DNA of 25,291 bases, from IMG/VR virus record IMGVR_UViG_3300012878_000029, positions 1 to 25,291 of that record; one strand, written 5' to 3'. Under the pieces are notes generated by a model, which was not told where the DNA came from, ran no database searches, and was given only the letters and a program-made list of their open reading frames with translations. Below are positions 93-25,192 of this stretch, one piece after another (the stretch's first letter is position 1; every line of letters begins with the position of its first letter). This stretch comes from a virus. Lineage: Duplodnaviria > Caudoviricetes. Position numbers and translations under genes: made by a program.

Positions 93-426
93 ATGGCACA
101 CCGCCCTGCCCCTGACCAAGGCCCCCAGAGCACCCGCCATGCGCTGTACCGGCGCATCACGCTGCGCTTGATTCCATTCATTTTCATCTGCTACCTGTTC
201 AACTACCTGGACCGCGTCAACGTCGGCTTCGCCAAACTGCAGATGCTCGACGCACTGAAGTTCAGCGAAACCGTCTATGGCCTTGGCGCCGGCATCTTCT
301 TCATCGGCTATGTGCTCTGCGGCCTGCCCAGCAATCTGGCGCTCAACCGCTTCGGCCCACGGCGCTGGATCGCGGCGATGATGATCGTCTGGGGCAGCTT
401 GTCCACCTGCCTGCTGTTCGTCACCA
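93..426 (+). pseudogene. MFS transporter (ACS / tartrate-phthalate permease-like), 5' part, disrupted by the insertion
   Basis: ATG at 93 (MAHRPAP...). Motifs RLIPFIFICYLFNYLDRVNVGFA and GLGAGIFFIGY are typical of ACS-family MFS permeases. After ...STCLLFVT the frame runs into element sequence and stops at 476. Confidence 0.9.
403..426 (+). repeat. Left attachment-site core CCACCTGCCTGCTGTTCGTCACCA
   Basis: Identical to 25169-25192. Confidence 0.95.
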
Positions 427-474
427 TGATACCCCCACCGAAATCACCTTCCAAGCTGGCTTTCCATCGCGCAT

Positions 475-498
475 AAAAAAGCCCGCACAACGGCGGGC
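475..498 (-). terminator. Intrinsic terminator
   Basis: GCCCGC/GCGGGC stem followed by a T6 run on the minus strand, downstream of 523..1071. Confidence 0.75.
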
Positions 499-522
499 CA
501 TAGGGGTTACAGGGTCGCTAAC

Positions 523-1071
523 TCAAGGCAATACGCCACCTTGAAGCGTTTCAATCTCAAGGTAGTAGGCGCGGCCTGTGTGGGTTAAACCGGCGTACTG
601 CTGGTTGTAATCGCCAATTCGGGACTCTATCAATCCAAGCCCATAAAGGCGATCAAGGGCAGCGTCTGTGGCGATCCGTGATAGGCCGGTTTGTCGGCGG
701 ACATCATCACCCGTGAGCATATGCCCATTCTGAATGGCCTTGCTGATGGCCAGAAATGCGGTGAGTTGGTCAGGTGAGAGCCGAGTACCCCTAGGCGCCT
801 CCTCTACGTTCTCAAAGCAATTGGCGTAAACGAACAAACCAATGAAGACCAGCGACAAAAGGCAACCGAGGCATAGAAGCAGGATTAGCCACACTGGGAA
901 AGCAACGTCGCTGCCCAGCCAACCCCCTAGCCCCTGAATCCAGCCCCACAGGGTACGGATTGCAGGACTGAAAAGGGACACATCAAAAACACTCTCAACA
1001 ATCTTGCCTAGCACCGTGGTGGCGATTGTGCCTACCGCACCCAATATAATCCCTTTCAACGTGACCTGCAT
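523..1071 (-). CDS. Membrane-anchored hypothetical protein with probable C-terminal winged helix
   Basis: 182 aa with hydrophobic N-terminal segments. C-terminal LTGDDVRRQTGLSRIATDAALDRLYGLGLI...LTHTGRAY resembles a wHTH. Confidence 0.65.
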   Translation of the reverse strand: MQVTLKGIILGAVGTIATTVLGKIVESVFDVSLFSPAIRTLWGWIQGLGGWLGSDVAFPVWLILLLCLGCLLSLVFIGLFVYANCFENVEEAPRGTRLSPDQLTAFLAISKAIQNGHMLTGDDVRRQTGLSRIATDAALDRLYGLGLIESRIGDYNQQYAGLTHTGRAYYLEIETLQGGVLP

Positions 1072-1219
1072 GCCTGCCCCCTAGTCGCAATGGGCCATTA
1101 TCACACCTTTGGCAGGTTTTCCAACTGGCATGAAAAGCCCAGCGGGCAAGGCTGAGCTATCTGACAGCATGATGATGCGCGTACAGGAGTGAAAAGCCTG
1201 AGCTTTCAGACAGGCATAG

Positions 1220-1242
1220 AAAAGCCCGCTCAGGGCGGGCTT
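1220..1242 (-). terminator. Intrinsic terminator (near-identical copy at 2121-2143)
   Basis: AAGCCCGC/GCGGGCTT stem with a T-run on the minus strand. Confidence 0.75.
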
Positions 1243-1263
1243 GGGGGTGTGGCTAGACGGTTA

Positions 1264-1674
1264 TCAAAGGAGCCTGAATGCGCTTTTCTGCACTGCCAAG
1301 GCTCCAAGGTTGTAGCTGGTGTAAGCCTCAATGGCCTCTTGCTTGGGCATCTTCTGACCAGAGCCGTACACGGTCCCTGTGGTAAGACACGCCACCATCA
1401 CACCCTCTTCAAGCAAGCCACGGACGAAAGCAAGGCGCTCATTGTCTTGGATGATGTGGGACGGGTGAACAATCGCCACAATGTCACCAGCAACAGCAGT
1501 GAGGCCAATCCATCTGATTGCAGGCACCTTCAAATCTGAGGATGGATTGAACGGGTTAGGTTGGCCGTAGCCATCCTCCTGCACCACCTGCACATCACGA
1601 CCATCAATAGCCGATGTATCCAGTGCTTGCACATCCGTCACTAGGATGTTGTCCAGCTTGTAAACCTTAGTCAT
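1264..1674 (-). CDS. Hypothetical protein (136 aa)
   Basis: Start moved to MTKVYKL (ATG at 1674), which follows an AGGAGG RBS. Ends just before a terminator. Confidence 0.7.
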   Translation of the reverse strand: MTKVYKLDNILVTDVQALDTSAIDGRDVQVVQEDGYGQPNPFNPSSDLKVPAIRWIGLTAVAGDIVAIVHPSHIIQDNERLAFVRGLLEEGVMVACLTTGTVYGSGQKMPKQEAIEAYTSYNLGALAVQKSAFRLL

Positions 1675-1687
1675 AAATCCTCCTGTA

Positions 1688-2011: not shown

Positions 2012-2044
2012 CGTGTAACCTCCTGTGTGTGTTTGATGGAGCGA

Positions 2045-3144: not shown

Positions 3145-3519
3145 ATGAAAACAGGATTGATGGCTGTTGCACTGGCTGGAATGCTGGGGAGTGGAGCTGT
3201 CATGGCAAATGATGGAAACGCTCTTCTAAATGATTGTCAGCAAGCTATAAGAGCACTGGACAATGTAAGAAGGGCATCGGACAGCGATATGGACAGCGGG
3301 ATGTGTTTCGGAATGATGGAAGGTGTCAGAGCCATGATGATGTATTTGAAAGACAGCATGTCTGATGATTACAAGGCGTGCTTTCCCAAGGGTGGCATAA
3401 GCAATGCACAAGCTGTAAGGATTGTCGTAAAGCACCTTAGTGATAATCCGGCTATATTGCACCTAGATGGTCCGCAACTAACGGTAATCGCGCTTCACGA
3501 AGCGTTCCCCTGCAAGTAA
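3145..3519 (+). CDS. Rap1a/Tai-family immunity-like periplasmic protein
   Basis: Signal peptide, then DGNALLNDC...CFGMMEGV...CFP...QAVRIVVKHLSDNP...ALHEAFPCK, the Rap1a pattern. Confidence 0.8.
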   Translation: MKTGLMAVALAGMLGSGAVMANDGNALLNDCQQAIRALDNVRRASDSDMDSGMCFGMMEGVRAMMMYLKDSMSDDYKACFPKGGISNAQAVRIVVKHLSDNPAILHLDGPQLTVIALHEAFPCK

Positions 3520-3748
3520 ATTGAATGGACAAAGGCCGCTACTCAAGTGGGTGTTCAATGGCTGATGTAATCACCCGCCGCCGAAAGGAAAACAGCACTT
3601 ACACTGATATTCAAATATCAGCCATAGAAAATAAGGAACGTCACCAATGCCTTGACGCTGGTGAGAAATTTGGTGACAAGAAAAGCTGTAGCAAAACCCG
3701 TCCGCCGTGGGTGGCAGACACTTCAAGGAAAGGAATCTCCTTACATTT

Positions 3749-4132
3749 TTACTTGCATGGGTAAGCGTCTCTCATAGCGATAAATACCAGTGACCCCGGC
3801 CCTGAATTCAGGTACTTGGGATTCTCTTTCAACCACCTCACGACAATGCGAGCCGCTTGGATGTAAGTCACAGAGTCGGGAACGCATGACTGATCAGCAG
3901 GATCAAGCCCTTTGTTGATTGTGGCGAACAGAGATATGACACCAGTTAGAGTGCCAAGGCAAGCGCCTGCATCATGCCTGTTTACGTCATCACGACTATC
4001 GTGCAGGTCAACCATAGTCTGACAGTTTCTCAGCAAAGCATTACCATCTGCTTCTGTTGTTTCTGCATAAACAAGACTGGGGAGGAAAACTAGTGTTGCA
4101 AATACGGACGCCTTGAGCCAACAAGCCTTCAT
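3749..4132 (-). CDS. Rap1a/Tai-family immunity-like periplasmic protein (paralog)
   Basis: Signal peptide, then DGNALLRNC...CLGTLTGV...CVP...QAARIVVRWLKENP...AMRDAYPCK. Confidence 0.8.
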   Translation of the reverse strand: MKACWLKASVFATLVFLPSLVYAETTEADGNALLRNCQTMVDLHDSRDDVNRHDAGACLGTLTGVISLFATINKGLDPADQSCVPDSVTYIQAARIVVRWLKENPKYLNSGPGSLVFIAMRDAYPCK

Positions 4133-4357: not shown

Positions 4358-5077
4358 TCAAGCCTTCTTGAACGTCACATCCAGAGCCATCATCAGGCGA
4401 CGTACAGTTGTAGGACTCCATTCACCACCACGTGAGGTGAACAGGTCTTGAGCATTGAGTACATCAGCGAGAGCTTGCAGTGTTGACGCGCCTTTGTAGA
4501 GAGCTGCCATGACATATGGTGCAAGCTTGGCCTGATGGCCCTGCACTTTAGGACTGTTCGCATTCTGTGCAGCCTTGGCCTTCTTAGCCTTACGAGCCAA
4601 CACAAGGTTGTCAGAACGACGATTCACCTTTGCTTGACTCACAACACAACCACTATCAGCACGCTCTTGGAGAGCCCCTAGGGCGTCTTTGGTACGTTGG
4701 CTAATGAACTGGCGTTCCTGCTCTGCCAGTGCTGCATACAGATGGAGCTGGAACCTGTCAGCCATAGGCATTGTGGCAATCTTGAAATCAACCTTCTCCA
4801 TCAACTGTGCAATGTGCAGCACAGAGCGGCTTATACGGTCGATCTTGGCAGCGACAATGGGTAGGCCATGACTCAGAGCCTTACGGCATTCAGGGCGCTC
4901 TACAGGGGCTATGGAGCCGGATACGGTGTCTGTGTACTCAGCTACCACGTTCCAGCCTTGTTGCTTAGCTGCCATCTGTACATAGGTGCGTTGGGCTTCA
5001 ATGCCTAAGCCTGATTCGCCCTGCCCTTTGGTCGATACACGGTAGTAAGCAACAACATCAACCATTGGCTTATCCAT
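4358..5077 (-). CDS. Serine recombinase, resolvase/invertase family
   Basis: Catalytic YYRVST, KIDRISRS, AEQERQFISQRTKDAL, and C-terminal DNA-binding TSRGGEWSPTTVRR. Start could be 5086 or 5077. Confidence 0.92.
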   Translation of the reverse strand: MDKPMVDVVAYYRVSTKGQGESGLGIEAQRTYVQMAAKQQGWNVVAEYTDTVSGSIAPVERPECRKALSHGLPIVAAKIDRISRSVLHIAQLMEKVDFKIATMPMADRFQLHLYAALAEQERQFISQRTKDALGALQERADSGCVVSQAKVNRRSDNLVLARKAKKAKAAQNANSPKVQGHQAKLAPYVMAALYKGASTLQALADVLNAQDLFTSRGGEWSPTTVRRLMMALDVTFKKA

Positions 5078-5117
5078 CACCCTCACCTCACCTTCAAATC
5101 ACTCTGTGTGTGTGCAC

Positions 5118-6909: not shown

Positions 6910-7845
6910 ATGGGCAGTCCGATTGAAAAGGCTTTTGAAACAGCACGACAGCTTCTAGAGTACGTTTCCCCTCTCAGCTCTACTTGGGATGAAGGCCGGT
7001 ACATTTTCAGGGGCCAGCCTAACGCTGATTACAAGCTGATACCGTCTGTGTGTCGCACTGATGAGGGTTCATTTGCATACGGATCACCAAAGCGAATGTT
7101 CAGCACATCCAGTGCAGATCAGATTGGGTTCGAGCTGGAGATTCTGAAAAAATTCCTAGATGGATGTGATAGGTCTGGTCTGCCAGTGCCGGGCTACTCA
7201 GAGCAGATCAAAAGGATGTTGTCAGCACAACCGTTTTTATTCCCTGAGACTTTCGTACCGTGGCCGCCTGAACAGCTCTTTGAAATTATGGCTGTTGCTC
7301 AGCACTACGATGTGCCTACACGTCTTCTAGATTGGACTGAGCGAAGCTATGTAGCCTGCTACTTTGCCGCTGCATCAGCCAACTTTGAGTTGGACAGCCA
7401 TACACACTTGCCCTTGCTGGCAGTATGGGCACTAGACACCACTTTTCATGATAGCTGGGAGACGGTGAGAATCATTAGAACACCGGGCGGTACTAGCAAG
7501 AATCAGGCAGCACAGTCTGGTTTATTCACAACACACAATGTGAAAGAGTACGGTGTGTTTGATGAGTATCAGTCAGAAGCCCTTGATGATGTTGAAGAAG
7601 TTTACATTAAGACGGGAAGTATTCGACCGTTGATAAAGATGACACTGCCAGTCACTGAGGCGCCAGAGCTATTGCACCTGCTGTCTAAGCTTGGCGTTGA
7701 CGGATCAACTCTGTTCCCCGGTTATCATGGAGTAGCTAAGATGGTGCGGGATTGGGCCAACACAGAGGTTGGCATCAGACTATCTCAGGCGGCCATTGAG
7801 CAAGCTAGGGAAGACAGTTACGACCATGACCCGGACTTTCATTGA
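6910..7845 (+). CDS. FRG-domain protein
   Basis: YIFRGQ, LIPSVCR, AQHYDVPTRLLDWT, ACYFAA and NQAAQSGLF are hallmark FRG motifs. Confidence 0.92.
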   Translation: MGSPIEKAFETARQLLEYVSPLSSTWDEGRYIFRGQPNADYKLIPSVCRTDEGSFAYGSPKRMFSTSSADQIGFELEILKKFLDGCDRSGLPVPGYSEQIKRMLSAQPFLFPETFVPWPPEQLFEIMAVAQHYDVPTRLLDWTERSYVACYFAAASANFELDSHTHLPLLAVWALDTTFHDSWETVRIIRTPGGTSKNQAAQSGLFTTHNVKEYGVFDEYQSEALDDVEEVYIKTGSIRPLIKMTLPVTEAPELLHLLSKLGVDGSTLFPGYHGVAKMVRDWANTEVGIRLSQAAIEQAREDSYDHDPDFH

Positions 7846-7984: not shown

Positions 7985-8731
7985 TTATCCAGCAACAGGA
8001 CCGGAAGTGCCTGTGCCCGGTGTTACACCAGAATGGAAATGTGTATCGAACAGCACGCCATTGAAGCGGGCTTCTCCAATCATTGTGTAGTTGCCTGTCC
8101 AGTTGGTTTGAGACACGTTCACATTCATTTGTTGAGCATTGAGGGTGATGGAGTTTGAAGCGTTTAGCTCAATATCCTTGCCAATCACTTTCACAGTTAA
8201 TTGAGATTTGATTTCAGCATTACCATCAGCCTTGAGAACTAGCTGTGTTTCCTGCCCTGTTCCAACATTATGAACAATCAGCAAATCATTAGAATCACTG
8301 CCTAGCGTGAGGCTGTTCATTTGTTTCTGAGAGACAGCAAATGGAGCGAGGCCGGGAACAAAGACACTATCCATCACATCTTTCATTCTGTTGTCATGCG
8401 TTTTAATGGCAGAGGTGTTGGTAGAAATCTTAAAATTGTCGATGTTGTTATCCATCACAACACAATGACCTACATCCCCCACATTCACTGGAAAGAAGAT
8501 GATGCTTGTTCCACTCTTGGGATAAGCGATAGGAACATTGAGGATTTGTGTTTCATCCATGTTTGTTCCATCATCAGCCTTGCGAGGGTTGGAGATTTCA
8601 ACTGTTACACTGAATCTACTGTTAACACCCACTACCCTTGCTGGGAAAGCTGTACGGGCGTTCTCATTATGATTGTAGATTTCATTCTGAATGACCGGGA
8701 GCCATCCGCCCGGTTCTTGCTGCATAGACAT
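7985..8731 (-). CDS. Gp138-like baseplate spike protein
   Basis: OB-fold-type N-terminus (PARVV...NVPIAYP...FPVNVGDVG...DSVFVPG), beta-repeat C-terminus and terminal THFHSGV (HxH metal-binding apex) typical of phage spikes. Confidence 0.85.
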   Translation of the reverse strand: MSMQQEPGGWLPVIQNEIYNHNENARTAFPARVVGVNSRFSVTVEISNPRKADDGTNMDETQILNVPIAYPKSGTSIIFFPVNVGDVGHCVVMDNNIDNFKISTNTSAIKTHDNRMKDVMDSVFVPGLAPFAVSQKQMNSLTLGSDSNDLLIVHNVGTGQETQLVLKADGNAEIKSQLTVKVIGKDIELNASNSITLNAQQMNVNVSQTNWTGNYTMIGEARFNGVLFDTHFHSGVTPGTGTSGPVAG

Positions 8732-9306: not shown

Positions 9307-11613
9307 TTAGTTGCCTCTTGCTCTTGTTTGAGTTGCTAGGATGGCAGATGGAGAGTTGGCACGTACAGAGTCTTCAATGGTACGCATTAGCTTATCGTGC
9401 ACATCACCAATCACACCCTGCACCTTGTCTGTTTCAACACCACTGATGCTGGTTTCACCTGTGGTCACATTGATGTTGTAGACAACACTGTTGTTAACAG
9501 CCTGCCCATTAACAGCAGGTTGCACAGGAGGCGTTACAGGAGGCGTAGCCATAACAGCCAGCTTGTTAGGGACAGCAGGAATGTCACTACCATCTGTCAC
9601 ACGCCAATTCTTATCAACAGATGAAACATCGCTGTTATCTGTCAATCTCCAAGGTGCTGTTGGGTCGCTGTTGTTCTTAGCATCAGCTTGAGGACTATCA
9701 CCATCAAGAGCAGCCTTGCGTTTAGCTTGAATGTCTGCACGCTGCTTATCATCTGTCTCACGCTGTTTCACAATGGCTGCATACTTCTCATCAGAGATAC
9801 CGCCAAGGTTATCAGGTAGGAAGTGCAAGCCATCCTGAATGACACGGAATACAGCAGTGAATACATCAACCAATGTCGAGAACACATCAACAATGATTGT
9901 GATAATACCAATCGTTGTCTCACCTACTGTCTTGAGTGCGTCGAATGCAAAGCCCAATCCATCATTACCAAAGACAGAATGCATCAAAGCTTTGGCACTT
10001 ACTCTAAGCTCATCAAATGCAGCTCCAAGCTCTTTGGTAAACTTAGGATCAAACAGGCTGTTGCCATCGTTGAACCAAGCAATCATCTTTGTAAAGTTCT
10101 TAACCAATCCTGTGAAGCCTTGCAGCACATAATTGGATGCATCACCAAGAGCCTCAAACTGAGGTTGTAGTTCGTTCAAAGCTTTAACCACAGACTCATA
10201 CAAACTTGGCATTGTCTTCTCAAGGCCACTCTTGGTGAAGGCAGAAGACAGGTTGGCTTGATATTGGTTGGAGATACGGTTATCCCAAGATTCTTGTGTG
10301 TTGCGAGCTTTATCCAGCAACCCACCTTCGTTGGCACGACGGTCCATAACAGCCCCAAGCTCTACAAAGAACTTCGTAAGCTGCTCACCGCGAATCTTCT
10401 TATCACCACGGTCTTTAGTGAATGCCATCAGAGCAGCATCACCAGTTAGTTTGCCGCCTGTTGCACGTTGCCATGCCTCAGCACCAATAGCGTTCGCATG
10501 CGCTCCAAGGTGTTCAGAGATTTGGCCTGTCCATTCCTCAGAGTACAGTTGTCCTTTACCCAAGGCTTGGCGAATACCAAGGCTAACTTTAGAAATGTTT
10601 TCGTTGGATAGATGCTGAGCCTTACCGTATTTAAGAATACCCTCAGCAACATCAGCAGATTGGTTTACACCCACCTTGGCAGACAATGCACCAACAATCT
10701 TGGCGTAGTCTGCACCGAGAGCTTTTGTACTAAAGCCTTCTGTCTGTGCGAAGTTCTCAAAGCGGGCGTTCATACGCTCAGCGTTCTCAAGCGTCTTTGG
10801 CCCTACAGACTCAAATTGACCAATACGTTGGTTACGGGTGTTAGCAGCGCGCTCAGCTTCACGGGCAAAGGCTGTAGCAGCAGCAGTGACAGCAGCGAAT
10901 GCAGCAACTACCAGAGCAGCAGCACCAGCTACGGCACCTAGGCCAGCAGCAGCCCCACCAAGCCCTCCTGCGAGTGCTCCTAGCCCTTCTACAGCACCAC
11001 CAGCGGCTACCCTACCGGCGAAGTTGCCAACACCACCAAAGCGGTGAATGGCGCTCGTACCGTGGCCCAAGAGGCCAGGGCCATGACGCCCTGTAATGTG
11101 GGTTCCTGCCGATCCTGCTTGCAGACGGTTAAGGCGGTGTTGAGCCATGCTATGACGTACAGCGTCAATCTGTGCCTTACGTTGGGCAGCGGCTGCACGG
11201 TTTGTCAGGTTGAGAGATTTGAGTTGGTTGGCTAGCCCTACTCCCTGTGCCTGTAGGTTGCTGATGGCAGCTCTACGTTGAGCAGCAGCTTGGAGAGCAG
11301 CGAGCTTCTGTTGCTCCTGTTGCAGCTTCACTTGTTGCTGTTGTGTCTTGAGCTGTGTGGCTGCACCCTGCTGTTGCACCTTGGTGAATTTGGCATTTTG
11401 TAGGGCAGCATCAAACTGAGCCTTGTTCATTGCCTGTTGGGCTTGGGCTACACCCTTACCACCAGTGCCCTTGAAAGCATTCTGCATGGCGTTACCCATT
11501 ACCTTCGCCTGCTTTTCAGCAGCTTTCATCAATGCTGTTGCCTGTTTGATTCCAGCAGGATCAACCTTGAAACTTAGCTTGGCGAATAGTTCGGCAATTG
11601 CTTGTTCATTCAT
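9307..11613 (-). CDS. Tail tape measure protein
   Basis: 768 aa, Ala/Gly/Gln-rich and helical. N-terminal IAELFAKLSFKVD and tape-measure domain motif QALGKGQLYSEEWTGQISEHL. Confidence 0.88.
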   Translation of the reverse strand: MNEQAIAELFAKLSFKVDPAGIKQATALMKAAEKQAKVMGNAMQNAFKGTGGKGVAQAQQAMNKAQFDAALQNAKFTKVQQQGAATQLKTQQQQVKLQQEQQKLAALQAAAQRRAAISNLQAQGVGLANQLKSLNLTNRAAAAQRKAQIDAVRHSMAQHRLNRLQAGSAGTHITGRHGPGLLGHGTSAIHRFGGVGNFAGRVAAGGAVEGLGALAGGLGGAAAGLGAVAGAAALVVAAFAAVTAAATAFAREAERAANTRNQRIGQFESVGPKTLENAERMNARFENFAQTEGFSTKALGADYAKIVGALSAKVGVNQSADVAEGILKYGKAQHLSNENISKVSLGIRQALGKGQLYSEEWTGQISEHLGAHANAIGAEAWQRATGGKLTGDAALMAFTKDRGDKKIRGEQLTKFFVELGAVMDRRANEGGLLDKARNTQESWDNRISNQYQANLSSAFTKSGLEKTMPSLYESVVKALNELQPQFEALGDASNYVLQGFTGLVKNFTKMIAWFNDGNSLFDPKFTKELGAAFDELRVSAKALMHSVFGNDGLGFAFDALKTVGETTIGIITIIVDVFSTLVDVFTAVFRVIQDGLHFLPDNLGGISDEKYAAIVKQRETDDKQRADIQAKRKAALDGDSPQADAKNNSDPTAPWRLTDNSDVSSVDKNWRVTDGSDIPAVPNKLAVMATPPVTPPVQPAVNGQAVNNSVVYNINVTTGETSISGVETDKVQGVIGDVHDKLMRTIEDSVRANSPSAILATQTRARGN

Positions 11614-11619: not shown

Positions 11620-12072
11620 TTACTCCTGTGCTTTGTCTGCTGGCAGACGATCAACAAGGATTTCAATTGCTCGCTCTTGTACACCTTCGCTTGCATCAGC
11701 AATGGCATCTGTCATGGCAACTGGATTGAAAGCACCAGAGGTTAGAAGGCGTGCATTCACTTCAAAATTGCTGTTCTCATCAATGGATGGAGCAACGTGC
11801 ATGATGGCTTGATCTAGTGCGTAAGACGCGCGTAGCACACGTTCATCACTCAGCGCCTTGTCAGCGTATTTCAAATCAGAGTAAGAGCAGTGTTTAAAAA
11901 CCTCTTCACCAAAACGCTTGCCGTATTCTTTGAAGTCGATGAAAGCTAGAGTTGCTTCTACGTTAATCTCATTGCCTGCCACTTCTGTCAGGGCTTTGCG
12001 GAAAAGGTTTTCTACAAAGTCTTCAAAGTAGGCAGCGTGTGTTCTTGTCAATATTGTTTCTGTCTTGGACAT
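11620..12072 (-). CDS. Hypothetical helical protein (150 aa)
   Basis: Start at MSKTETIL (ATG at 12072, AAGGA RBS). Lies directly upstream of the tape measure gene. Confidence 0.7.
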   Translation of the reverse strand: MSKTETILTRTHAAYFEDFVENLFRKALTEVAGNEINVEATLAFIDFKEYGKRFGEEVFKHCSYSDLKYADKALSDERVLRASYALDQAIMHVAPSIDENSNFEVNARLLTSGAFNPVAMTDAIADASEGVQERAIEILVDRLPADKAQE

Positions 12073-13540: not shown

Positions 13541-14076
13541 TACTTAGTCACCTTAGAGCCACGCATACGCTCACGGACACGTCTATCAAGGTCAGCAGCG
13601 GCTCTTGCTGCATCTTCTGCTTTGAGCTGGGCAGCTACTCGGGCTTCTTCTTCTGCCAGAGCTTTTGCCTCTTGCTGATAAACCTTGTCATTGTGGGCTT
13701 CAATCTCTGCCTCATAACGCTTGGCAACCTCAGCGGCAATACCCTTGGCGTCTTCTGCTTGTTGGGCTTCTGGCTTCACAACGTAGAAGGTAGTGACATA
13801 CGGGGTGATTGTTGGCTGTAGGTGCCCACCAGTGAACAGCTTGTAGCCTTCGTCTAGCTTCGCTTGAAGTTCGATAACAGCAAGGTGAGTGGATTGGTGA
13901 ATCACTTCCTCAACAGCACCTAGGAACATTCTACGGGGTGCATTACCACGCGCATCTAGTGGTGCTGATTCATCAGGGCCAAAGCCAGTTTTACGAATGG
14001 CGTAGGCTTCCATTTCACAAGCAACTAGGTGTTGCAGGTCGGATTTGTCGGCTTTGCGTAGGGTTAGAGTTGTCAT
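13540..14076 (-). CDS. Hypothetical protein with C-terminal coiled coil (178 aa)
   Basis: AAGGA RBS; Ala/Glu-rich helical tail. Confidence 0.75.
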   Translation of the reverse strand: MTTLTLRKADKSDLQHLVACEMEAYAIRKTGFGPDESAPLDARGNAPRRMFLGAVEEVIHQSTHLAVIELQAKLDEGYKLFTGGHLQPTITPYVTTFYVVKPEAQQAEDAKGIAAEVAKRYEAEIEAHNDKVYQQEAKALAEEEARVAAQLKAEDAARAAADLDRRVRERMRGSKVTK

Positions 14077-16040: not shown

Positions 16041-16316
16041 TTAGCGTGCCTTCGACTCTTCAAACACTGCTGTGCTTGTGAATCCGTAAAGGCTGTACAC
16101 CTCACTCATCACGCCAATTCCGTACATCTTCACAATCGACCTGAGTTCATTCTTGCTTCTCTCAAGGCGGGCTGTGGCGTTGATTCGGTTGGCGTGCTTG
16201 ATCTGAGTGACAAGCTGTCTGATACGGTCTTGTACAGTGTCCGTCACCACCTCATTACAGGTGGCTTGGGTTCCATTCAATACCGACTCCGCTACCGCTT
16301 CTGTTGTATCTCGCAT
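16041..16316 (-). CDS. Hypothetical protein (91 aa)
   Basis: Start at MRDTTEAV (ATG at 16316) after a GGAGG RBS. Overlaps the end of the upstream ORF. Confidence 0.55.
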   Translation of the reverse strand: MRDTTEAVAESVLNGTQATCNEVVTDTVQDRIRQLVTQIKHANRINATARLERSKNELRSIVKMYGIGVMSEVYSLYGFTSTAVFEESKAR

Positions 16317-17394
16317 TGCTCTTGCCTCCTGTGTACTTGGTGATATCGAATCCTGCTGTTTTGGAATGTGGATTATACACTGTATCAGTGTGTGTTGCAA
16401 ATACAATCTCACATTCATCAGGCTCATCGTTCATCAGTTCTTTCAGGTAAGAAGCATATGCTTCATCTTCTGCCCTAATGCGCGCCTGAGTGGCTTCCAC
16501 TTGTTCGGCTGTGGCAACACCAACAGCGGCAAACGGGTCATCCGATTCATCAGCAATAGCTACAGGAGCTGGCTCTACGGCGTCTACAGGCTGTGCAATT
16601 CCCTCAGCAATCTCAACATCAGCCAGGAAGTCAAAGAACGGGTCAAGGGTGTTGCTTGCATCATCCTTCACAGGAGCTTCTACAACGTCTTGTTGCTTGT
16701 TGGCTGGGATGGCAGCAAGGGCCAAGTCTTCTGTACCGTCTAGCGCGTCTGTGACGCTCAGGGAACGTGCCAGCAGAGTGCTTGTAGGCTCTGGGCTGTA
16801 CTCTTTGATTGCCAGCTTGAGAATGTGGCGACGGGCTGCATATTGCTGCTTGCGTTGGGCTTCTGTGGATTCGATTTGGTCAGCATCTTGGCCTGTGGCG
16901 AATTGCTCCATGAAAGCGTTTTCCATGTCAGCAATAACGGCTGCAAGTTCCAAGGCGAAGGTTTCCAGAGCTACACGGCTAGCTGTTGGTTGTTCATCAC
17001 AAACCCAGTCAGGCACGAATTGCAGGGTAAGGCCGGTGTCTTCTACCAGTTCTGCACAGCGTTGCTTGATGCTGTAGATGTGGTCTTTGTTGTACGTCGC
17101 ACCGTAGATGCTGTGGGCGATGGTGCGCAGCTCGTACTCTTTGCACCCTTGAGGACGTACAGCGAGGGCGTAGGCTTGTTGAGCAGCGGTGTTGAGCTTG
17201 TTAGGGCGGGAAGTCTTAGCGGCTGGAGCGGCTTTGTTGGCTCCCTTCACAGCACCACTCATGTGCTGGTTAACAAAGCGTTCTTTCAGACCAGTCTCTT
17301 TGATGATGGCACGGCGGGATTTGCCAGCCTCAACCATGCTGTGTACTAGGGCAATGTTAGCTTGAATCTGTTCTTGTGTGAGCTTGTCTTTCAT
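16255..17394 (-). CDS. HTH-containing protein, candidate replication initiator
   Basis: 379 aa with an N-terminal HTH-like segment (VEAGKSRRAIIKETGLKERFVNQHM) and an acidic C-terminal half. Lies directly downstream of the iteron array, which overlaps its promoter. The Rep function is inferred. Confidence 0.6.
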   Translation of the reverse strand: MKDKLTQEQIQANIALVHSMVEAGKSRRAIIKETGLKERFVNQHMSGAVKGANKAAPAAKTSRPNKLNTAAQQAYALAVRPQGCKEYELRTIAHSIYGATYNKDHIYSIKQRCAELVEDTGLTLQFVPDWVCDEQPTASRVALETFALELAAVIADMENAFMEQFATGQDADQIESTEAQRKQQYAARRHILKLAIKEYSPEPTSTLLARSLSVTDALDGTEDLALAAIPANKQQDVVEAPVKDDASNTLDPFFDFLADVEIAEGIAQPVDAVEPAPVAIADESDDPFAAVGVATAEQVEATQARIRAEDEAYASYLKELMNDEPDECEIVFATHTDTVYNPHSKTAGFDITKYTGGKSNARYNRSGSGVGIEWNPSHL

Positions 17395-17498: not shown

Positions 17499-17526
17499 AG
17501 CATATCACATTTGTCACCACTGTCAA
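17499..17526 (-). promoter_or_regulatory. Sigma70-like promoter TTGACA-16-TATGCT (extended -10) with an iteron in its spacer
   Basis: Minus strand reads TTGACAGTGGTGACAAATGTGATATGCT. Confidence 0.65.
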
Positions 17527-17747
17527 CACATTTATGTGAGCTGGTGACACATTTTGGTGACATTTCTGGTGACATTCTCACATTTACACACTGGTGAAGC
17601 GCTAACACATTTGTCACCACTTTACACGAACCATATCTATAGGAGTGGTGACAACCCAAAGTGGTGACAAACAGAACATCCAACCTGTGACATACTGTCA
17701 CCAAGAAAAAACGAACCATATATAGAAGGTGGTGACAACTGGTGACA
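17512..17747. repeat. TGGTGACA iteron array, candidate replication origin
   Basis: Ten perfect copies in both orientations, starting at 17512, 17542, 17555, 17567, 17612, 17646, 17662, 17696, 17730 and 17740. Confidence 0.85.
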
Positions 17748-18245: not shown

Positions 18246-18995
18246 TTAGGTACTGGTGTTGCTTCCATTAGCACGGTAGTCAGTAGCACTTTCCTTGCTG
18301 TAATTGGAAGGTGCCTTAGATGGGTCCGGCTGTTCCTTGACTGTAGTAGTCTTGCCAACCTGTCTGCCCTTACTCTTGATTGTCACCTGAACATTCTGCA
18401 CTACAGCAAAGCTCACCTGTTCAAATTCCAGCTCAGGGAATACGCCCTCACCTGTTCTCTCATCCTCTTTGAAATCTGCGCGTGTGAGCACACAGTTGGA
18501 GTACGTCTTGGGAATGACTCCATCACGATATTCAAAGAACGTGAACACCTCACGATTGGTAATCATATCAATCATGTTGTCTTTCACCGCCAGTGCAGTC
18601 TTGGCCTTATCCTGTGGCGTGACATACACCTCTGGGATAGTGTCCTTGGTGAACTGTGCTACTACCTCTGGCATGAATTTGTTAATGCTGCTCGTCTCAG
18701 AGATTTGGACAGGGAAAACTGTCTGAGTGTTGTTGAGGTACTGCTTGTTACCGTTAATGTCGCCAACACTGATAGTCGGACGGTTAGAGTTGAAGTCAGC
18801 ATCAGACAAGATGCCAGAGATAGAGAATCTTGGATTTTCAAATGTCGTGTGATCGCTGATCTTTGCACCGTTAGCAAGTGGGTGCTTTGTTACAGCAGCC
18901 GAATATTGCTCAGCTAGTGCTGTGATTGCGTCGAAGTAGAGAACATCGCCATTTGCTCTTAGCAGGGCAAAGCCGCTAGATGTAGTTGTTGCCAT
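18246..18995 (-). CDS. Dit-like phage baseplate / tail-tube-initiator protein
   Basis: FDA...E...VTKHPLANGAKISDH....P..SISGILSD and YSNCVLT...ELEFEQV match Dit-like proteins of myoviruses. Confidence 0.8.
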   Translation of the reverse strand: MATTTSSGFALLRANGDVLYFDAITALAEQYSAAVTKHPLANGAKISDHTTFENPRFSISGILSDADFNSNRPTISVGDINGNKQYLNNTQTVFPVQISETSSINKFMPEVVAQFTKDTIPEVYVTPQDKAKTALAVKDNMIDMITNREVFTFFEYRDGVIPKTYSNCVLTRADFKEDERTGEGVFPELEFEQVSFAVVQNVQVTIKSKGRQVGKTTTVKEQPDPSKAPSNYSKESATDYRANGSNTST

Positions 18996-19898: not shown

Positions 19899-20369
19899 TC
19901 ATACAGCAGCCACCGGAATTCTGAACCTAACGCTTTCAAGCATCTTGCCTGTATCGAACAGCGGACGGTCAAAGCCTTTGGTTGCTACAGTACGCGGGCT
20001 GTTATGGCCCGGATAGTTTGCAATCGTGACTTTGATTTCATCAGCCACAATCTTTCCAAGTAGCTGCATGATGATACGTGGATTGCCTGTATTCAGGATG
20101 GAAGCCCTTGCAGCCTGTTTCAACACTTTGATGATGGCTTGCAGGTTGGTTTTGTTTTCCAACGTCTCTTGCATGAATGGGCGTTGAGGGTGAAAGCGTG
20201 TTCCATATTCGTTATACGCTGCCACTTGAGCCACTGGTGTTCCATCGTCGTAGGCGTCTCCCTGAAAGAAGCCCACTTCTGTCTTTGTTCTGGCTAGTGT
20301 CTTGAGGCGCTTGGCGAGATTATCAAGCCCTCTTAGGTCTAGCTTTGTATATACTTTTGTAGAAATCAT
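19899..20369 (-). CDS. HK97 gp10-like neck/tail completion protein
   Basis: Start at MISTKVY (ATG at 20369). Motifs VGFF...Y.DGTPVAQVAAYNEYGT..HPQRPFM and KGFDRPLFDTGKMLESV. Confidence 0.8.
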   Translation of the reverse strand: MISTKVYTKLDLRGLDNLAKRLKTLARTKTEVGFFQGDAYDDGTPVAQVAAYNEYGTRFHPQRPFMQETLENKTNLQAIIKVLKQAARASILNTGNPRIIMQLLGKIVADEIKVTIANYPGHNSPRTVATKGFDRPLFDTGKMLESVRFRIPVAAV

Positions 20370-20388
20370 AAAATTTTTCCTTATGCAT

Positions 20389-20811
20389 CTATCTCCCGTT
20401 TGTGTGGATTGTTGGTGACACGTTGATAACAGGGTTAGCATTCTGTTGAATGAAGCCCTGCCTTTCTCGGAACTCTTGTTGAATCACTTTGAACACCTGC
20501 TCAGGGGCTGCTCTGTAAGAAACATCCTCAAGGCGTCTAGTGGCATGATCCAACATTTGTAGTTGAGTATTGATCTTGGTTTCAGATTCACCAACTCTGG
20601 CTCCAAGCTCTTGCACTCTTTCTTCTACAGAGTCAACACGCTTGTCTACAATCTCTTTCTGGGTCTGGATATTGTTATATTCATACTCATCAACTCTATG
20701 GCCGATGGTGATGGGTGTTGCGATGATTGCTAGGATTAGGAGTACAGCCAAGATTATTAGTTGTAGTCTGGTAACTGGCCTCCTGTACCACTTCTGAGGA
20801 CTCTCAGACAT
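20389..20811 (-). CDS. N-terminal TM plus coiled-coil protein (paralog of 8947..9303)
   Basis: TM segment LIILAVLLILAIIA; C-terminal IQQNANPVINVSPTIHT. Confidence 0.75.
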   Translation of the reverse strand: MSESPQKWYRRPVTRLQLIILAVLLILAIIATPITIGHRVDEYEYNNIQTQKEIVDKRVDSVEERVQELGARVGESETKINTQLQMLDHATRRLEDVSYRAAPEQVFKVIQQEFRERQGFIQQNANPVINVSPTIHTNGR

Positions 20812-20829: not shown

Positions 20830-21237
20830 TTAGCCCAACTGGGCACCTCCGAAGGAACGTTGTAGAGGTTTTGGGCTGAACAGTTGAAGACGTCTTGTTA
20901 GAACGTCATTAAAGATTTCCCTGTTTCGGCCTGAGCAGATTTCATCAGCAGCACCAGCAATGCGGATTTGAACAGCTTTGTTCATGAAATCTTCTACAGC
21001 ATCGAGCAGGAACATAGACCCGGAATAACATACAGTCACTGTGTCACCAGTACGGAACCAGAAGAAGTGATAGTCTGTAACATCAGGGTGTCTACGTTTG
21101 AGCATCATATTGAAATGACGCCCAAGGCGCTTTAGGTCAATACGGTCATACTTACCATATCCCTTTAGCACGTAGATTGCGGAATGAAGCCCTTTCGATT
21201 GTAGGGCTTCAATGTGTCTTTCAAAATTGGCTCTCAT
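20830..21237 (-). CDS. Hypothetical protein (135 aa)
   Basis: Abuts the upstream stop; GGAGG RBS. Confidence 0.7.
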   Translation of the reverse strand: MRANFERHIEALQSKGLHSAIYVLKGYGKYDRIDLKRLGRHFNMMLKRRHPDVTDYHFFWFRTGDTVTVCYSGSMFLLDAVEDFMNKAVQIRIAGAADEICSGRNREIFNDVLTRRLQLFSPKPLQRSFGGAQLG

Positions 21238-22062
21238 TTAGCCTCCATTTGTCTTAGCTTGTCTTTGAGCTTCCTTGTTCATTTCAACTTCTTCAAAGTA
21301 GATGCGTAGAGCAGTTTCGTTTGCATCATAGGCATCTTCCACACTCAGGCTTAGCGATAGGTCTGCCATTGTTGCCAGAGGTTGAGAGCATTTGAGAATG
21401 TTGTAAATGACGTTGGATTGGCTGTAAGACTTTCCGATTGTTTCCAAAGATCGCGGAATGCTTGCACCACTGCTGTAGTTTTGTGGTAGCTGCCAACGGT
21501 CTTTAGTCCATAGGTGTAGGAAGTTGTATTCAATCACTTGTCCCAACAGCAGGGCCATTTCAGCGAATGTCAGAGAGTCATAATCAAGCGGCTCGCCATC
21601 AAGAGTGACGTAGCGTAGAAACTCATCAAACACACTCTCATAATCAAGCTCAGCGTCTTGCTTGCTGCTGGCTGTGAATGTGATTGGATAAGATAGAGGC
21701 GTTGGCACGCGCTGTTGTACGCTCTCTTCTCTGTCAGCAAGGGTTTTGCCTGCCAACACTTCCTTAACAGTTAGCTTGCCTGCTGGCCCGCTATCAAGCT
21801 GTTTGAAAGTGACGTAAGTAGCATCAGGATTTGCCACCTTATCAAAGAACTGATTGAGTGCGAGCCACTTACCATCAATCACAAATGGCTTGATGATTGG
21901 GTAGAAGGCTTTGCTGTCTACAGTGATTGTTTCCTGAGCAGCACCAAAAGCATAGATTGCATTCCAATAGTTTTCTAGGAGTGCACAACCTTCTGTTGCT
22001 GGATGTTGTGTGATTTTGTACGTCTTACCCTCAACGGTAATCTTCTTGGTTAGTCTTGCCAT
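21238..22062 (-). CDS. Probable tail assembly chaperone (G/GT-like, single ORF)
   Basis: N-terminus KITVEGKTYKITQHPATEG, internal GQVIEYNF and C-terminal LATMADLSLSLSVEDAYDANE resemble the two consecutive chaperone ORFs of myoviruses. Confidence 0.6.
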   Translation of the reverse strand: MARLTKKITVEGKTYKITQHPATEGCALLENYWNAIYAFGAAQETITVDSKAFYPIIKPFVIDGKWLALNQFFDKVANPDATYVTFKQLDSGPAGKLTVKEVLAGKTLADREESVQQRVPTPLSYPITFTASSKQDAELDYESVFDEFLRYVTLDGEPLDYDSLTFAEMALLLGQVIEYNFLHLWTKDRWQLPQNYSSGASIPRSLETIGKSYSQSNVIYNILKCSQPLATMADLSLSLSVEDAYDANETALRIYFEEVEMNKEAQRQAKTNGG

Positions 22063-22109: not shown

Positions 22110-23090
22110 TCAGACAACTACAATGTCTGCATCTTGCATTTCATTACATTGCAACTCCGCATACCATTCATTGCCTCTGAAATCGCCAGTGAAACGAATA
22201 GAACTGATGCGGTAAAATCCTTGGTAGTCTCTGTAATCAATCTTAACCACTCGACTAGGCACCAAGGCTGCATCCAACAGCAGTTTAACTTGCACACCGG
22301 GGCGTGCTCTCTTGTCCTTACTGGAAACTCTAGACTTTTCAGAAATGCGGAAAGGCTGATCAATCATGCCTGTCTCTTCACTGATAACAGGAACATCTAC
22401 AGTGGTCTTAGAGGAAGGGCCATTGAAGTCGGTTACAGTAAGAACATCGTTAGTGATGTTGTATTCAAGATTGTAAGCACGGGTGAGCTTATCCAATTCT
22501 TCTTTAGGAGTTCCAGACAAACGCCATCCATGAACAATTGGGCTGTTGAGATTGGTTCCAACGATAGGACCACGACTAATACCCGGCATGTTATTAACGA
22601 TAGCATCAACAACGTCTTTCACAGTTTGGCCGGGGGAAAGATTCTGACTCAATCGGGCTTGGGTTAGGTTTACATACCCTTCACCAATCACCATCTGTGT
22701 AATGGTGTCAGTGCCACTTTTGATTGTGGAACACTCTGTTAGATTTCCTTTGGCTAGTAGCTTCAAGCCTTCACCGTTGGTGTATCCAACATGCAACTCA
22801 GCCTCAAGGAAACGGCTTTCAAGCAATTGCTCTTGACCTGGGCTGAGGTTATAAATTTCGATAGAAGCAGAGTTGCCTCTGTTGTGTTTGTTGTCGCTAC
22901 TCTTGTCTACGTTGAACGTAAGCTGTAATGGTCGCTGATAGTCGCGGCTATCAATCTTGATTCCCTTTCCGTTGTCGTAGTCACCAACAGTTAGAATGTA
23001 GCAGCGTTCACGCTTTAGGTTAGTTTCGTCAGTTGTTGCTACTGCACTGCTGGTGTAGTTAGAGCTTTGTCTGATTGGCAAAAGGGCCAT
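22110..23090 (-). CDS. Baseplate hub protein
   Basis: LTFNVDKS...ASIEIYNLS...LHVGY, ISEETGMIDQP, VKLLLDAALVP and GFYRISSIRFTGDFRGNEWYAELQC match myovirus hub proteins. Confidence 0.85.
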   Translation of the reverse strand: MALLPIRQSSNYTSSAVATTDETNLKRERCYILTVGDYDNGKGIKIDSRDYQRPLQLTFNVDKSSDNKHNRGNSASIEIYNLSPGQEQLLESRFLEAELHVGYTNGEGLKLLAKGNLTECSTIKSGTDTITQMVIGEGYVNLTQARLSQNLSPGQTVKDVVDAIVNNMPGISRGPIVGTNLNSPIVHGWRLSGTPKEELDKLTRAYNLEYNITNDVLTVTDFNGPSSKTTVDVPVISEETGMIDQPFRISEKSRVSSKDKRARPGVQVKLLLDAALVPSRVVKIDYRDYQGFYRISSIRFTGDFRGNEWYAELQCNEMQDADIVVV

Positions 23091-23289
23091 AATGAATTGT
23101 TCCTTGTAGGTGTGGGGCTTTAATTACTCCCCTGTCTAGAATCATTTGCACGATGTTGGACAGAGAGCGGTTGTTGTGATGGTTAACCCGGCAATTGGAA
23201 TTGCAGAACGCCTTACGTGCTGTCTTGCACGACATAGAGCACCCGCAATGTTTGCAAGGGCGTACAGTGATGTTTGGAATAGCAGGCAT
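23059..23289 (-). CDS. C4 zinc-finger protein (76 aa)
   Basis: AGGAG RBS; CKHC...FCNSNCRVNHH. Confidence 0.7.
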   Translation of the reverse strand: MPAIPNITVRPCKHCGCSMSCKTARKAFCNSNCRVNHHNNRSLSNIVQMILDRGVIKAPHLQGTIHYGPFANQTKL

Positions 23290-23360
23290 AGGGTTATCTC
23301 CTGATTAGGATTCACAGAGTGTGTGACAGTTGATTAAACGGAATTGAATGCAGGGCATAG

Positions 23361-23385
23361 AAAAGGCCGCATCCTTGGCAGCCTT
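23361..23385 (-). terminator. Intrinsic terminator or attenuator upstream of the tail operon
   Basis: Minus strand AAGGCTGC-CAAGGAT-GCGGCCTT-TTCTAT. Confidence 0.65.
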
Positions 23386-23466
23386 GTCTAATGGCTCATT
23401 GCGAGCCGTGTAAGCCCTTACACACCGAAAGGAAGAGTGACAATGCATCACCTATATCGGTATGGA

Positions 23467-23495
23467 ATTATAACACGGAATGTGAGATTTTGGAA
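23467..23495 (-). promoter_or_regulatory. Sigma70-like promoter TTCCAA-17-TATAAT with extended -10
   Basis: Minus strand reads TTCCAAAATCTCACATTCCGTGTTATAAT. Confidence 0.6.
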
Positions 23496-23550
23496 GTGTT
23501 ATATGTAATTCAACACACATCCTTACAGACGATAGGCGAAAAGATGGCCC

Positions 23551-25110
23551 TCACTGCCCTTCCAAAATCTCTAGGAACGGGTCATCAGACAGCCGCTCGA
23601 CCCCAGTGTCGCAGTAATCGTCTCGGGCGATCATGTAGAGCCTGTGCCCGTTATCCAGTACGAAGCGGTTAGACGACTTGTCCTTGCCCTTGTACTTCCA
23701 CACCGCTTCACCACCGGCAATGGCCATGGTCTTGTCAGGATAAATGGTGATGGAGAATCCAACCTGTGCAAGCAAGCTTGAGAGCTTCTGCGGGTCGTCA
23801 CGCTCAATCCGCCAAACATCTGTGGTGGTCGCCCAACTGGCAAATGGTGTCACTGTCCGCTCTAGGAGCGCTATAGCGGCGTTAGCCTTATCTCTGGCCT
23901 CGCTGTTCTCTTTCATCGCTGCCACAAGCTCAGGGACCGCCCCAAGGGCCATCACAGATTCTGTTAGTCCTTTGAGCTTCGCTGTGTACGCTTCCGCCTC
24001 AGAACGGAGATGGGCAATCTCTGTTTCATTAATCCCAGTGTTTAGGATTGATACAGCCTTACGTTTCCATTCATCTGCACAGAAAGCCATCAGGGCTTGC
24101 ATGATCGCTAAGGGCAACTGTGCGTTGTTGGTGCAATCCCCTACCATCTGATTTGTGCGGCAACGAACAGAGGACGTTTTGCCAGCGCGATGCTGAACGA
24201 TGTAGTTCTTACCGCATACGCCACATTTCATCAGACCGACTAGGAAGTGTTTAGCGGTCTTCTTCACTGGCTTGGTGGCCACACGTTCCTTATGCATCTG
24301 AGCTTTCTGAAAGGTGCTCAGGCTTACAACTGGCGGGTAGGCGTTCTGGATAATTTCGGTTGGCCTATTGTCATCGAGCTTGTACACCTCCCATTCACCA
24401 ATGGCAGTGCGGTTTGTAATCCAACGACGAACAGACGCACCAGCCACCCTAGCCAATTCGGGTACGCCAGATTCACGCATACGCTTGGCAATGGTGCTTG
24501 TACCTACACCCGATATGTACAGGTCAAAAGCAATCCTCACTTGCTGTGCAACAGGTTCGATCAACACACCCTCAGAGGTGAGCCATACAGGGGTTGAACG
24601 CTTAGGCGTTTGACCCTTTTCCTTCGCTGCCTTCTTACGAGTCTCATACGATGCCTTGATACGTCGAGACAAGGCAGCCGAGTATTGGTGTGCAGACTGT
24701 ATCTTTGCAGCCAGCAAGAAAATGGCTGATCCGTTGAGGCTTTCTCGGTTGTACGTCTGGTTGTCATCAAGGGTGATGATCGAAACGCCTGCACTGAGAA
24801 TCGGGTGAATGATCCCAAGCATGTCAACAGCGTCAAGACGCCCTGTACGGTCGATAGCCTCAACCAACACAACATCACCAGTCTTGATTGCACCTTGCTG
24901 GATAGCGTCTAGGAGCTTCCCAAAGCCACCACCTTTTACGTGCTCGCCCTTGTAGCCAGATTTTCCAAGGTCTTTGTATTGGAGGTCGGAGAGGGTGTAT
25001 TCGGGATACCTGACCAACCATTCCCCAATCATCTGCTCTTGGCGCTCAACTGAGTTGCCGTGCTTTTGGCGAAGGCTGGAGAATCGAACGTAGCTAATGG
25101 CTTGCGGCAT
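23551..25110 (-). CDS. Large serine recombinase (integrase)
   Basis: 519 aa with catalytic YVRFSS and VEAIDRTGR, a recombinase domain (YPPVVS), a Zn ribbon (LMKCGVCG...C...C) and a coiled coil. Adjacent to the att site. Confidence 0.95.
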   Translation of the reverse strand: MPQAISYVRFSSLRQKHGNSVERQEQMIGEWLVRYPEYTLSDLQYKDLGKSGYKGEHVKGGGFGKLLDAIQQGAIKTGDVVLVEAIDRTGRLDAVDMLGIIHPILSAGVSIITLDDNQTYNRESLNGSAIFLLAAKIQSAHQYSAALSRRIKASYETRKKAAKEKGQTPKRSTPVWLTSEGVLIEPVAQQVRIAFDLYISGVGTSTIAKRMRESGVPELARVAGASVRRWITNRTAIGEWEVYKLDDNRPTEIIQNAYPPVVSLSTFQKAQMHKERVATKPVKKTAKHFLVGLMKCGVCGKNYIVQHRAGKTSSVRCRTNQMVGDCTNNAQLPLAIMQALMAFCADEWKRKAVSILNTGINETEIAHLRSEAEAYTAKLKGLTESVMALGAVPELVAAMKENSEARDKANAAIALLERTVTPFASWATTTDVWRIERDDPQKLSSLLAQVGFSITIYPDKTMAIAGGEAVWKYKGKDKSSNRFVLDNGHRLYMIARDDYCDTGVERLSDDPFLEILEGQ

Positions 25111-25168
25111 TGGAATTCCTCGGTTTGAGCGATTTTAGCATGGGCAGCCATAGGGAGTAGCATACGAC

Positions 25169-25192
25169 CCACCTGCCTGCTGTTCGTCACCA
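25169..25192 (+). repeat. Right attachment-site core CCACCTGCCTGCTGTTCGTCACCA
   Basis: Identical to 403-426; 58 bp from the integrase start codon. Confidence 0.95.

Follow-up and report, generated by a model that had tools for sequence, protein, structure and literature searches.

An integrated element encoding the axial core of a contractile phage tail, a probable satellite of Vandenendeviridae-type lytic myoviruses

The viral record IMGVR_UViG_3300012878_000029 (25,291 nucleotides; the whole stretch analysed is referred to as the window) contains an element of 24,766 bp integrated between two identical 24-bp att cores inside a host gene for a permease of the MFS family. We propose, with a probability of about 0.7, that this element is a satellite of lytic myoviruses of the Vandenendeviridae type, encoding the axial core of a contractile tail that would be completed with helper parts to form hybrid virions. 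The element belongs to an independent, intact, mobile and diverse family.

Results

The element and its tail genes

The att cores are the longest exact repeat of the window, which holds only three other repeats (16-17 bp), and the 3' half of the permease gene picks up in frame downstream of the right core. An earlier note on this DNA had described an intact element bounded by two att cores and carrying an integrase; the 24-bp cores, the in-frame permease halves and the serine recombinase bear this out. PLEs, satellites of phage ICP1 in Vibrio cholerae, integrate by a large serine recombinase. The GC content is 42-54% inside the element, whereas the flanks of this island and of its relatives have about 60%. 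No tRNA gene was found in the window, an Rfam search across five sources returned no match, and promoter and terminator counts in the window were only at chance level.

39..426, plus strand: 5' half of the host MFS permease gene, split by the element (Pfam MFS_1, E 2e-12; sequence)
403..426, plus strand: left att core, 24 bp (repeat search, comparison with relatives)
23551..25110, minus strand: large serine recombinase, the integrase (PHROG, Pfam)
25169..25192, plus strand: right att core, 24 bp, beyond which the host MFS frame goes on (sequence, repeat search)

The six tail open reading frames (ORFs) listed in the earlier note (hub, chaperone, gp10-like, Dit-like, tape measure and spike) are all present and uninterrupted.

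7985..8731, minus strand: baseplate spike, homologue of gp86 of Pakpunavirus P7-1 (PF18352, PDB 9zd7 gp86)
9307..11613, minus strand: tape measure protein (TMP), 768 aa (PHROG, profile of the phiPsa374 TMP)
18246..18995, minus strand: "Dit-like" protein, a homologue of the P7-1 sheath initiator gp83 (PF21821, PDB 9zd7 gp83)
19899..20441, minus strand: tail completion/Neck1 (HK97 gp10-like) protein (phrog_222)
21238..22062, minus strand: tail assembly chaperone, a single in-frame G-T fusion (profiles)
22110..23090, minus strand: baseplate hub, homologue of P7-1 gp85 (phrog_196, PDB 9zd7 gp85)

These genes form three minus-strand blocks rather than the two operons described previously, because the plus-strand ORF 19313-19888 separates the Dit-like gene. 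The hub, initiator and spike all mapped by PDB search onto one solved baseplate, 9zd7, which, judging from matching gene numbers and names, is the P7-1 structure; the chaperone, the TMP and the tail-completion protein had no sequence match in PDB. In the P7-1 baseplate, gp78, gp79, gp83, gp85 and gp86 are reported to form a stationary cap that comprises hub, sheath initiator and spike together with tube-B and tube-C; the end of the TMP binds the spike, gp83 binds tube-C, and the capsid has T=9 symmetry (PMC13338283). A tail-completion protein has been resolved with TMP and DNA within a tail (PMC11661146).

The tail-completion protein, initiator, hub, spike and TMP were each found in all nine near-complete elements of the family, the chaperone profile matched six of the nine, and the gp145 adaptor was found in four, the window not being among these. 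The ratio of nonsynonymous to synonymous substitution rates (dN/dS) of the six tail genes was 0.02-0.25 over 42 pair values, in some of which dS was saturated; the tail genes are under purifying selection. At 752-790 aa, the satellite TMPs are as long as their counterparts in the closest group of phages (747-797 aa), and the suggestion that the element sets tail length is therefore not supported.

Structural genes not detected in the elements

Thirty-three profiles, derived from phiPsa374 genes and their phage homologues, were compared with 3,997 six-frame segments from the nine near-complete elements, two of which (G003 and G005) are perhaps truncated on one side. None of the nine matched the profiles for terminase, portal, protease, capsid, decoration and three neck genes, or those for sheath, tube, two tube-like proteins, wedge, fibre, lysin, holin and spanin. 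When 35 (PHROG, Pfam) or 34 (NCBIfam) window ORFs were scanned against the libraries, none matched a family of capsid, portal, terminase, sheath, tube or wedge proteins. Both approaches agree with the earlier note, in which no such genes were recognised. The PHROG labels "tail fiber" and "endolysin" fell on the gp83-like ORF and were taken as mislabels. Neither of the two unknown ORFs that were folded (20830-21237 and 11620-12051) matched a structural protein. Two points limit this result: seven of the 33 profiles, including those for terminase and portal, were built on a single sequence, and structure prediction covers these two unknown ORFs only.

A chaperone fused in frame

In 35/35 phage loci, reading in the -1 frame can continue past the stop codon of G and for at least 76 further codons, as is typical of a G/GT frameshift. 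The G-like and T-like parts lie within one ORF in 11 of the 11 elements scanned that have the first of the two gene orders described below (type A), and no slippery run was visible at the G-T junction in the four junctions examined. G is reported to bind the TMP and T to recruit the tube protein, and a forced permanent G-T fusion in TP901-1 led to non-infectious particles (PMC4493119); the fusion is therefore either an adapted loader or an inhibitor. The TP901-1 result speaks against the assembly of hybrid virions, as does the chaperone's going undetected in all four elements of the second gene order (type B). A separate G chaperone at 11620-12051 was considered and not supported (best fold-comparison Z of 4.9).

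The fate of the TP901-1 particles would also agree with a decoy defence, in which the satellite TMP, cap and fused chaperone trap tube and baseplate parts of the helper in dead-end tails and the element itself travels in ordinary helper tails. So would the divergence of the window TMP, just 23% identical to its helper-group counterpart phiPsa374 gp147 over 300 columns, and the existence of small relatives that hold a TMP with or without a chaperone and no cap. A decoy, however, needs neither a complete cap, nor a tail-completion protein, nor a TMP of helper length, and the TMPs of PLEs have been reported to enter virions and to be required for transfer (PMC12987554). We consider a decoy role unlikely and favour the assembly of hybrid virions.

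Candidate helpers and the origin of the initiator

Among phages, hub, spike and initiator had their best matches in Pseudomonas myoviruses of 93-101 kb and in one Pectobacterium phage. We take these phages to be members of the Vandenendeviridae. As the earlier note had anticipated, the best hits of the tail genes nominate a helper myovirus, namely Vandenendeviridae-type lytic Pseudomonas phages.

Trees were inferred quickly and without a mixture model, and the topology test was chosen after inspection of the trees. In the hub tree, type A (support 100/93) and type B (100/100) sequences formed satellite-only clades inside a group containing phiPsa374. In the initiator tree, the satellites fell beside three phage clades, namely that of phiPsa374 for most type A sequences (98), another for G002 and L056 (99) and yet another for type B (98); the sister clades of the satellite initiators include phage genomes of 97-98 kb. 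A single satellite clade was rejected for the initiator by the approximately unbiased test (p-AU 1.4e-82; type A alone 9e-6) and was not rejected for the hub (p-AU 0.51) or the spike. This pattern fits repeated capture of the initiator gene, and an adapter role for its product is suggested because gp83 binds the tube-C of the helper and the gene appears to have been captured repeatedly. The type B element L034 and the phage L008, from a sister initiator clade, carry the same dataset number in their identifiers, a hint of co-occurrence.

The identity to known phages is moderate (40-68%), as might be expected if the element were the satellite of an unknown temperate myovirus or part of a host tailocin-like machine completed elsewhere in the chromosome. 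Against this stand the sister position of every satellite initiator group to a clade with 97-98 kb phage genomes, and the scaffold motif described below, which matches the same phage group. R-type tailocins and complete myovirus prophage loci are defined by sheath, tube, wedge, fibre and lysis genes, a set that was found by profile in none of the nine elements. The att sites, the integrase and the patchy distribution (4/401 genomes) do not fit a domesticated tailocin. Both versions of this explanation appear quite unlikely.

Packaging by the proposed lytic helpers raises a difficulty for the satellite reading. The helpers have fixed ends with terminal repeats, no terminase subunit was found in the element, and no tested element DNA matches the terminal repeat of phiPsa374. 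A 34-bp segment, L132:3859-3892, matches phiPsa374 at 88% about 115 bp before the right terminal repeat, and this may be chance.

Two ORFs ending in a scaffold motif

Two small ORFs share a C-terminal motif with a putative helper scaffold.

13014..13346, minus strand: predicted scaffold mimic 1, 110 aa, ending in DKTTSILKAKYGL (motif match)
12688..12975, minus strand: predicted scaffold mimic 2, 95 aa, ending in MTTDILKAKYGNK (motif match)

The C-terminus of phiPsa374 gp160 is DRTTAILKARYGVK; the gp160 gene has a protease-like gene on one side and the coat genes on the other, and some records of its homologues are annotated as scaffold. When 50,697 phage records were searched for the motif with an E limit of 10, 30 records matched, 29 of them from Pseudomonas phages and one from a Pectobacterium phage; the match in phiPsa374 was the end of gp160 and was weak (E 3). 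Scored with a profile of 14 scaffold ends, both window ORFs and an ORF of G003 took the top ranks (E 1.4e-4 to 1.4e-3) in a set of 5,422 segments, and no flank control out of 1,809 did better than E 4. Three motif positions were invariant across 12 element ends and seven phage ends, a hand-picked set. These similarities make it likely that the scaffold-end mimics redirect head assembly as well. The earlier description of the element as headless was therefore right as to the absence of capsid genes and too broad otherwise, since two ORFs end in a scaffold motif and head-related genes thus exist.

The CpmB protein of SaPIs acts through a C-terminal end shared with the helper scaffold and binds coat protein (PMC5644958). 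By arithmetic, a T=4 head derived from the T=9 head of a 98-kb phage would hold about 29 kb, and an element of about 25 kb fits; four element copies would also fit one full helper head. Several observations count against scaffold mimicry. The motif is short and reached an E under 0.01 in three element ORFs only, an off-position 44-aa segment scored E 0.17 against the scaffold-end profile, the motif was not found in three of the four type B elements, the dN/dS of the mimics was 0.23-0.68, and two small relatives hold the motif at the N-terminus. The N-terminal copies (ILKAKY) lie in small ORFs, L197:586-852 and L198:17851-18087, adjoining the hallmark gene presented below.

A mobile family with two gene orders

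The family comprises nine near-complete elements and partial ones, which form low-GC islands with two gene orders; the integrated large elements measure about 22.8-25.3 kb (arithmetic). Type A order was found in the window, G001, G002, G003, G007 and G717 and in the partial elements L046, L047, L049-L051 and L056, type B order in G004, G005, G244 and L034. Hub homologues of the family, named Pseudomonas proteins included, were 55-91% identical, versus up to about 52% for named phages. Hub matches were present in 4/401 genomes of the genus sample (Pseudomonas, centre included), in 6/401 of the family sample, two of these being close, and in 2/400 of the class sample, one being the centre. Searches of genomes and viral contigs with a single hub sequence found nothing, alignment queries being needed. 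G434, a weak family-level match in a low-GC genome with three shared genes only, was set aside, and the weak matches G458, G538, G558 and G798 stand outside the family set.

The search proposed in the earlier note for elements with the same gene set at other att sites thus succeeded, with two insertion sites: the MFS gene of the window and an alpha/beta-hydrolase gene in six other relatives. L047 is rearranged, its integrase and rep-TMP block having the opposite orientation to the hub block. G001 (L002) is titled Leclercia; it has Pseudomonas-like flanks, stems from the Pseudomonas genus sample and is probably mislabelled. P0010, a hub homologue with 62% identity, carries the name of P. syringae pv. 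actinidiae, on which many Otagovirus phages have been isolated.

The hallmark-gene profile matched 10/401 genomes, a count that includes the unpublished G155, and the four inspected of the five new matches were all islands of 12-13 kb without hub, spike and initiator. A TMP-like gene is present in G350 and G013; G329 has a chaperone followed, at the TMP position, by a 746-aa ORF that scored below the TMP profile cut-off; G318 gave no TMP match by profile. The loci are L194-L195 (G350), L200-L201 (G329), L198-L199 (G013) and L196-L197 (G318). They are about half as long as the large elements and one-eighth as long as the helper genome, and head capacity may set these sizes. In G318 the integrase-like gene is a different one and the end repeat, of 26 bp, is tRNA-like; the gene interrupted by G013 is presumably FKBP-like. 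No description of such a family was found in the searched literature, which covered few subscription papers, figures or supplements.

Evidence of mobility came from reads and from a second record. In run X2, from an independent study, a contig reads from 25192 into 427-456 and from 25139-25168 into 403, an attP-type join, with a junction depth of 22 versus about 20-23 for most of the element body; no host-joined contig was among the contigs listed. Tandem integrated copies, which would give the same junction, temper this result. In run X1, from which the window may originate, the depth of the element was 7-9 versus 21-23 for the flanks, and a 36-base piece spanning the core may represent the empty site. 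G004 is an end-repeated viral record; across the shared core, the sequence upstream of its integrase matches the far ends of both G002 and G244 as well as the end of G244 that carries the integrase. The family occurs end-joined, as if excised.

The rating of G003 by IMG/VR as a provirus of 26% completeness and the phage-derived structural genes might point to the remnant of a decayed prophage, an explanation that the earlier note had also disfavoured and that is highly improbable and largely refuted by the same gene subset in diverged elements, the rearranged order, purifying selection, two insertion sites, end-joined forms, hubs in the satellite-only clades (100/93, 100/100) and the lack of an integrase in the phiPsa374 annotation.

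Replication region, cargo and other genes

The remaining features of the element were as follows.

523..1071, minus strand: end gene, predicted membrane anchor (homologues opposite the integrase end in several relatives)
3145..4132, no single strand: two convergent Rap1a-family immunity-like genes, cargo (PF18602)
4358..5086, minus strand: small serine resolvase (Pfam), present in 9/9 large elements
6910..7845, plus strand: FRG-domain gene, candidate defence cargo, variable (PADLOC PDC-S15, Pfam)
11620..12051, minus strand: all-helical protein (family members match phiPsa374 gp047, phrog_5067)
13540..14076, minus strand: family core gene, in both gene orders and the small relatives (comparison of relatives)
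16255..17394, minus strand: candidate replication initiator (gene position, comparison with relatives)
17512..17747, no strand: candidate origin, 10 GGTGACA repeats directly upstream of the candidate initiator (repeat count)
20389..20811, minus strand: membrane-anchored coiled-coil protein (weak Rz-like match, E 5.5e-4)
20830..21237, minus strand: family hallmark gene, small alpha/beta fold (16/16 large-element sequences compared)

The window holds 21 copies of GGTGACA (3.9 expected), of which 10 lie within 17512-17747. Clusters of 7-mers (6-9 copies) were also found upstream of the homologues of 16255-17394 in G001, G003, L047 and L050, not in G007. Other members have an unrelated Zn-finger protein of about 400 aa in place of 16255-17394, and no such cluster was found in members with this alternative gene. 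Neither the candidate initiator nor the Zn-finger alternative had a Pfam, PDB or convincing Atlas match, and GGTGACA was not enriched in phiPsa374. The repeats and the adjoining ORF fit an origin with its initiator and are not proof of one; the origin and Rep of the earlier note stay candidates, and 16255-17394 matches no family. A second cluster, of four GGTGACA sites, lies at 5747-5862 in a long non-coding stretch by the resolvase gene and could serve in regulation or resolution. The resolvase itself probably acts in multimer resolution.

The hallmark gene had no match in the 50,697 phage records. For its predicted fold (pLDDT 88), Foldseek returned nothing with an E of 0.001 or below, and the Atlas had no usable hit; the best VIA Z of 8.1 (root-mean-square deviation 3.1, 107 aligned) is a value that common alpha/beta arrangements also reach, and a likeness to HUH-Rep and to polymerase palm was too weak to be accepted. 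Rap1a-like cargo recurs in large and, by eye, small members (L135, L194, L199). In phiPsa374, gp047 is a non-tail gene, and its window counterpart 11620-12051 is located just before the TMP gene. The membrane-anchored coiled-coil ORFs 8947-9303 and 20389-20811, one per tail block, have similar C-terminal ends and might act in lysis timing or in injection.

Discussion

For the steps that follow excision (replication, packaging and hybrid virions), we infer the following model. Infection by a helper would set off excision, and the element would replicate from its repeat-rich origin. With the satellite's own spike and hub as cap and the fused chaperone as loader, the satellite TMP would draw in tube, wedge, sheath and fibres from the helper. 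The sheath initiator, which contacts helper tube proteins, seems to be taken up anew from whichever helper lineage is at hand. The mimics of the scaffold end would bind helper coat protein in the manner of SaPI CpmB and favour a small T=4 head, which would admit about 25 kb and exclude about 98 kb. A private tail core would let the element hamper helper tail assembly and spare its own, as PLE11 does, although no inhibitor of this kind was identified in the element. A wider proposal, which we put forward tentatively and at slightly under even odds, is that a superfamily lives on the Vandenendeviridae, ranging from TMP-only members of 12-13 kb to full-core members of 23-25 kb, with hub and spike of its own, a helper-matched initiator, a frameshift-free chaperone and head-shrinking mimics.

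The element likely works like a PLE and is not one. The comparison with PLEs made in the earlier note is upheld for the gene classes and the lack of a capsid and fails for host and size. Like PLEs, the element is a chromosomal island with an integrase and without capsid genes that encodes its own TMP and chaperone, a hub also occurring in some PLEs, and its proposed helper is a large lytic myovirus (PMC12987554, PMC10085698, PMC10945586); the PLE-type tmp and tac genes and the hub are present as gene classes, judged by class and not by allele homology. The relatives of the element, however, lie in Pseudomonas genomes, whereas PLEs are reported only from V. cholerae, and the word "Pseudomonas" is absent from the main text of PMC12987554. 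The family is diverse, with large members of 22.8-25.3 kb or small ones of 12-13 kb, whereas PLEs are described as highly homogeneous and of about 18 kb (median 17.7 kb). PLEs are further defined by the marker genes capR, repA, nixI, lidI and tcaP and by a helper that induces and packages them and that they block. The top tail-gene hits are Pseudomonas myoviruses and not Vibrio phages, the PLE helper being ICP1. In the family, the kit is larger by a spike, a sheath initiator, a tail-completion protein and in some members the adaptor, the chaperone is G-T fused, and the predicted scaffold mimic is internal, in contrast to the external scaffold TcaP reported for PLE.

With SaPI CpmB, the mimics have in common that a small protein shares only a C-terminal coat-binding motif with the helper scaffold (PMC5644958). 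The motif and the fold family are different, the helpers of SaPIs are temperate, no CpmA-like partner was identified in the element, and coat binding by the mimics is a prediction. The cf-PICIs are also satellites that form hybrid particles, some with predicted tmp genes (PMC13230959, PMC12987554), and the division of labour is the opposite: as described there, cf-PICIs encode heads and take tails, whereas the family encodes the tail core and no head. Their own capsid, portal, protease and terminase were found in none of the nine elements, and no such family was present among the window ORFs; library scans, in which many window ORFs stayed unassigned, gave no family match for an AlpA/Stl regulator, a primase-replicase or a small terminase. 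The likeness to the P7-1 cap lies in the homologues of gp83, gp85 and gp86 (PDB) and, via phiPsa374 profiles, in the TMP and the gp84-position adaptor (4/9). The element differs by the lack of tube-B/C, adaptor-2, triplex, sheath, tube and fibres, and its gene order is scrambled.

Since PLE-like elements of other Vibrio and some cf-PICIs are reported to carry tmp, TMP-bearing satellites are not new as such. In PMC12987554, the V. cholerae PLEs are the one demonstrated case of satellites that live on strictly lytic phages and of chimeric tails built by a satellite, and the way in which a PLE selects its own TMP is called unknown there. The present analysis goes beyond the first reading of this DNA in the scaffold-end mimics, the fixed G-T fusion, the initiators associated with three phage clades and the 12-13 kb relatives.

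Culturable Pseudomonas, cultured candidate helpers and a solved baseplate from the helper family make the proposal testable part by part, and the split between satellite-owned and helper-matched components predicts the interfaces that set helper range. The Vandenendeviridae include therapeutic Pakpunaviruses. If elements of this family block their helpers, resistance to phages that serve, or have been proposed, as agents of biocontrol and therapy would have a source that has been overlooked.

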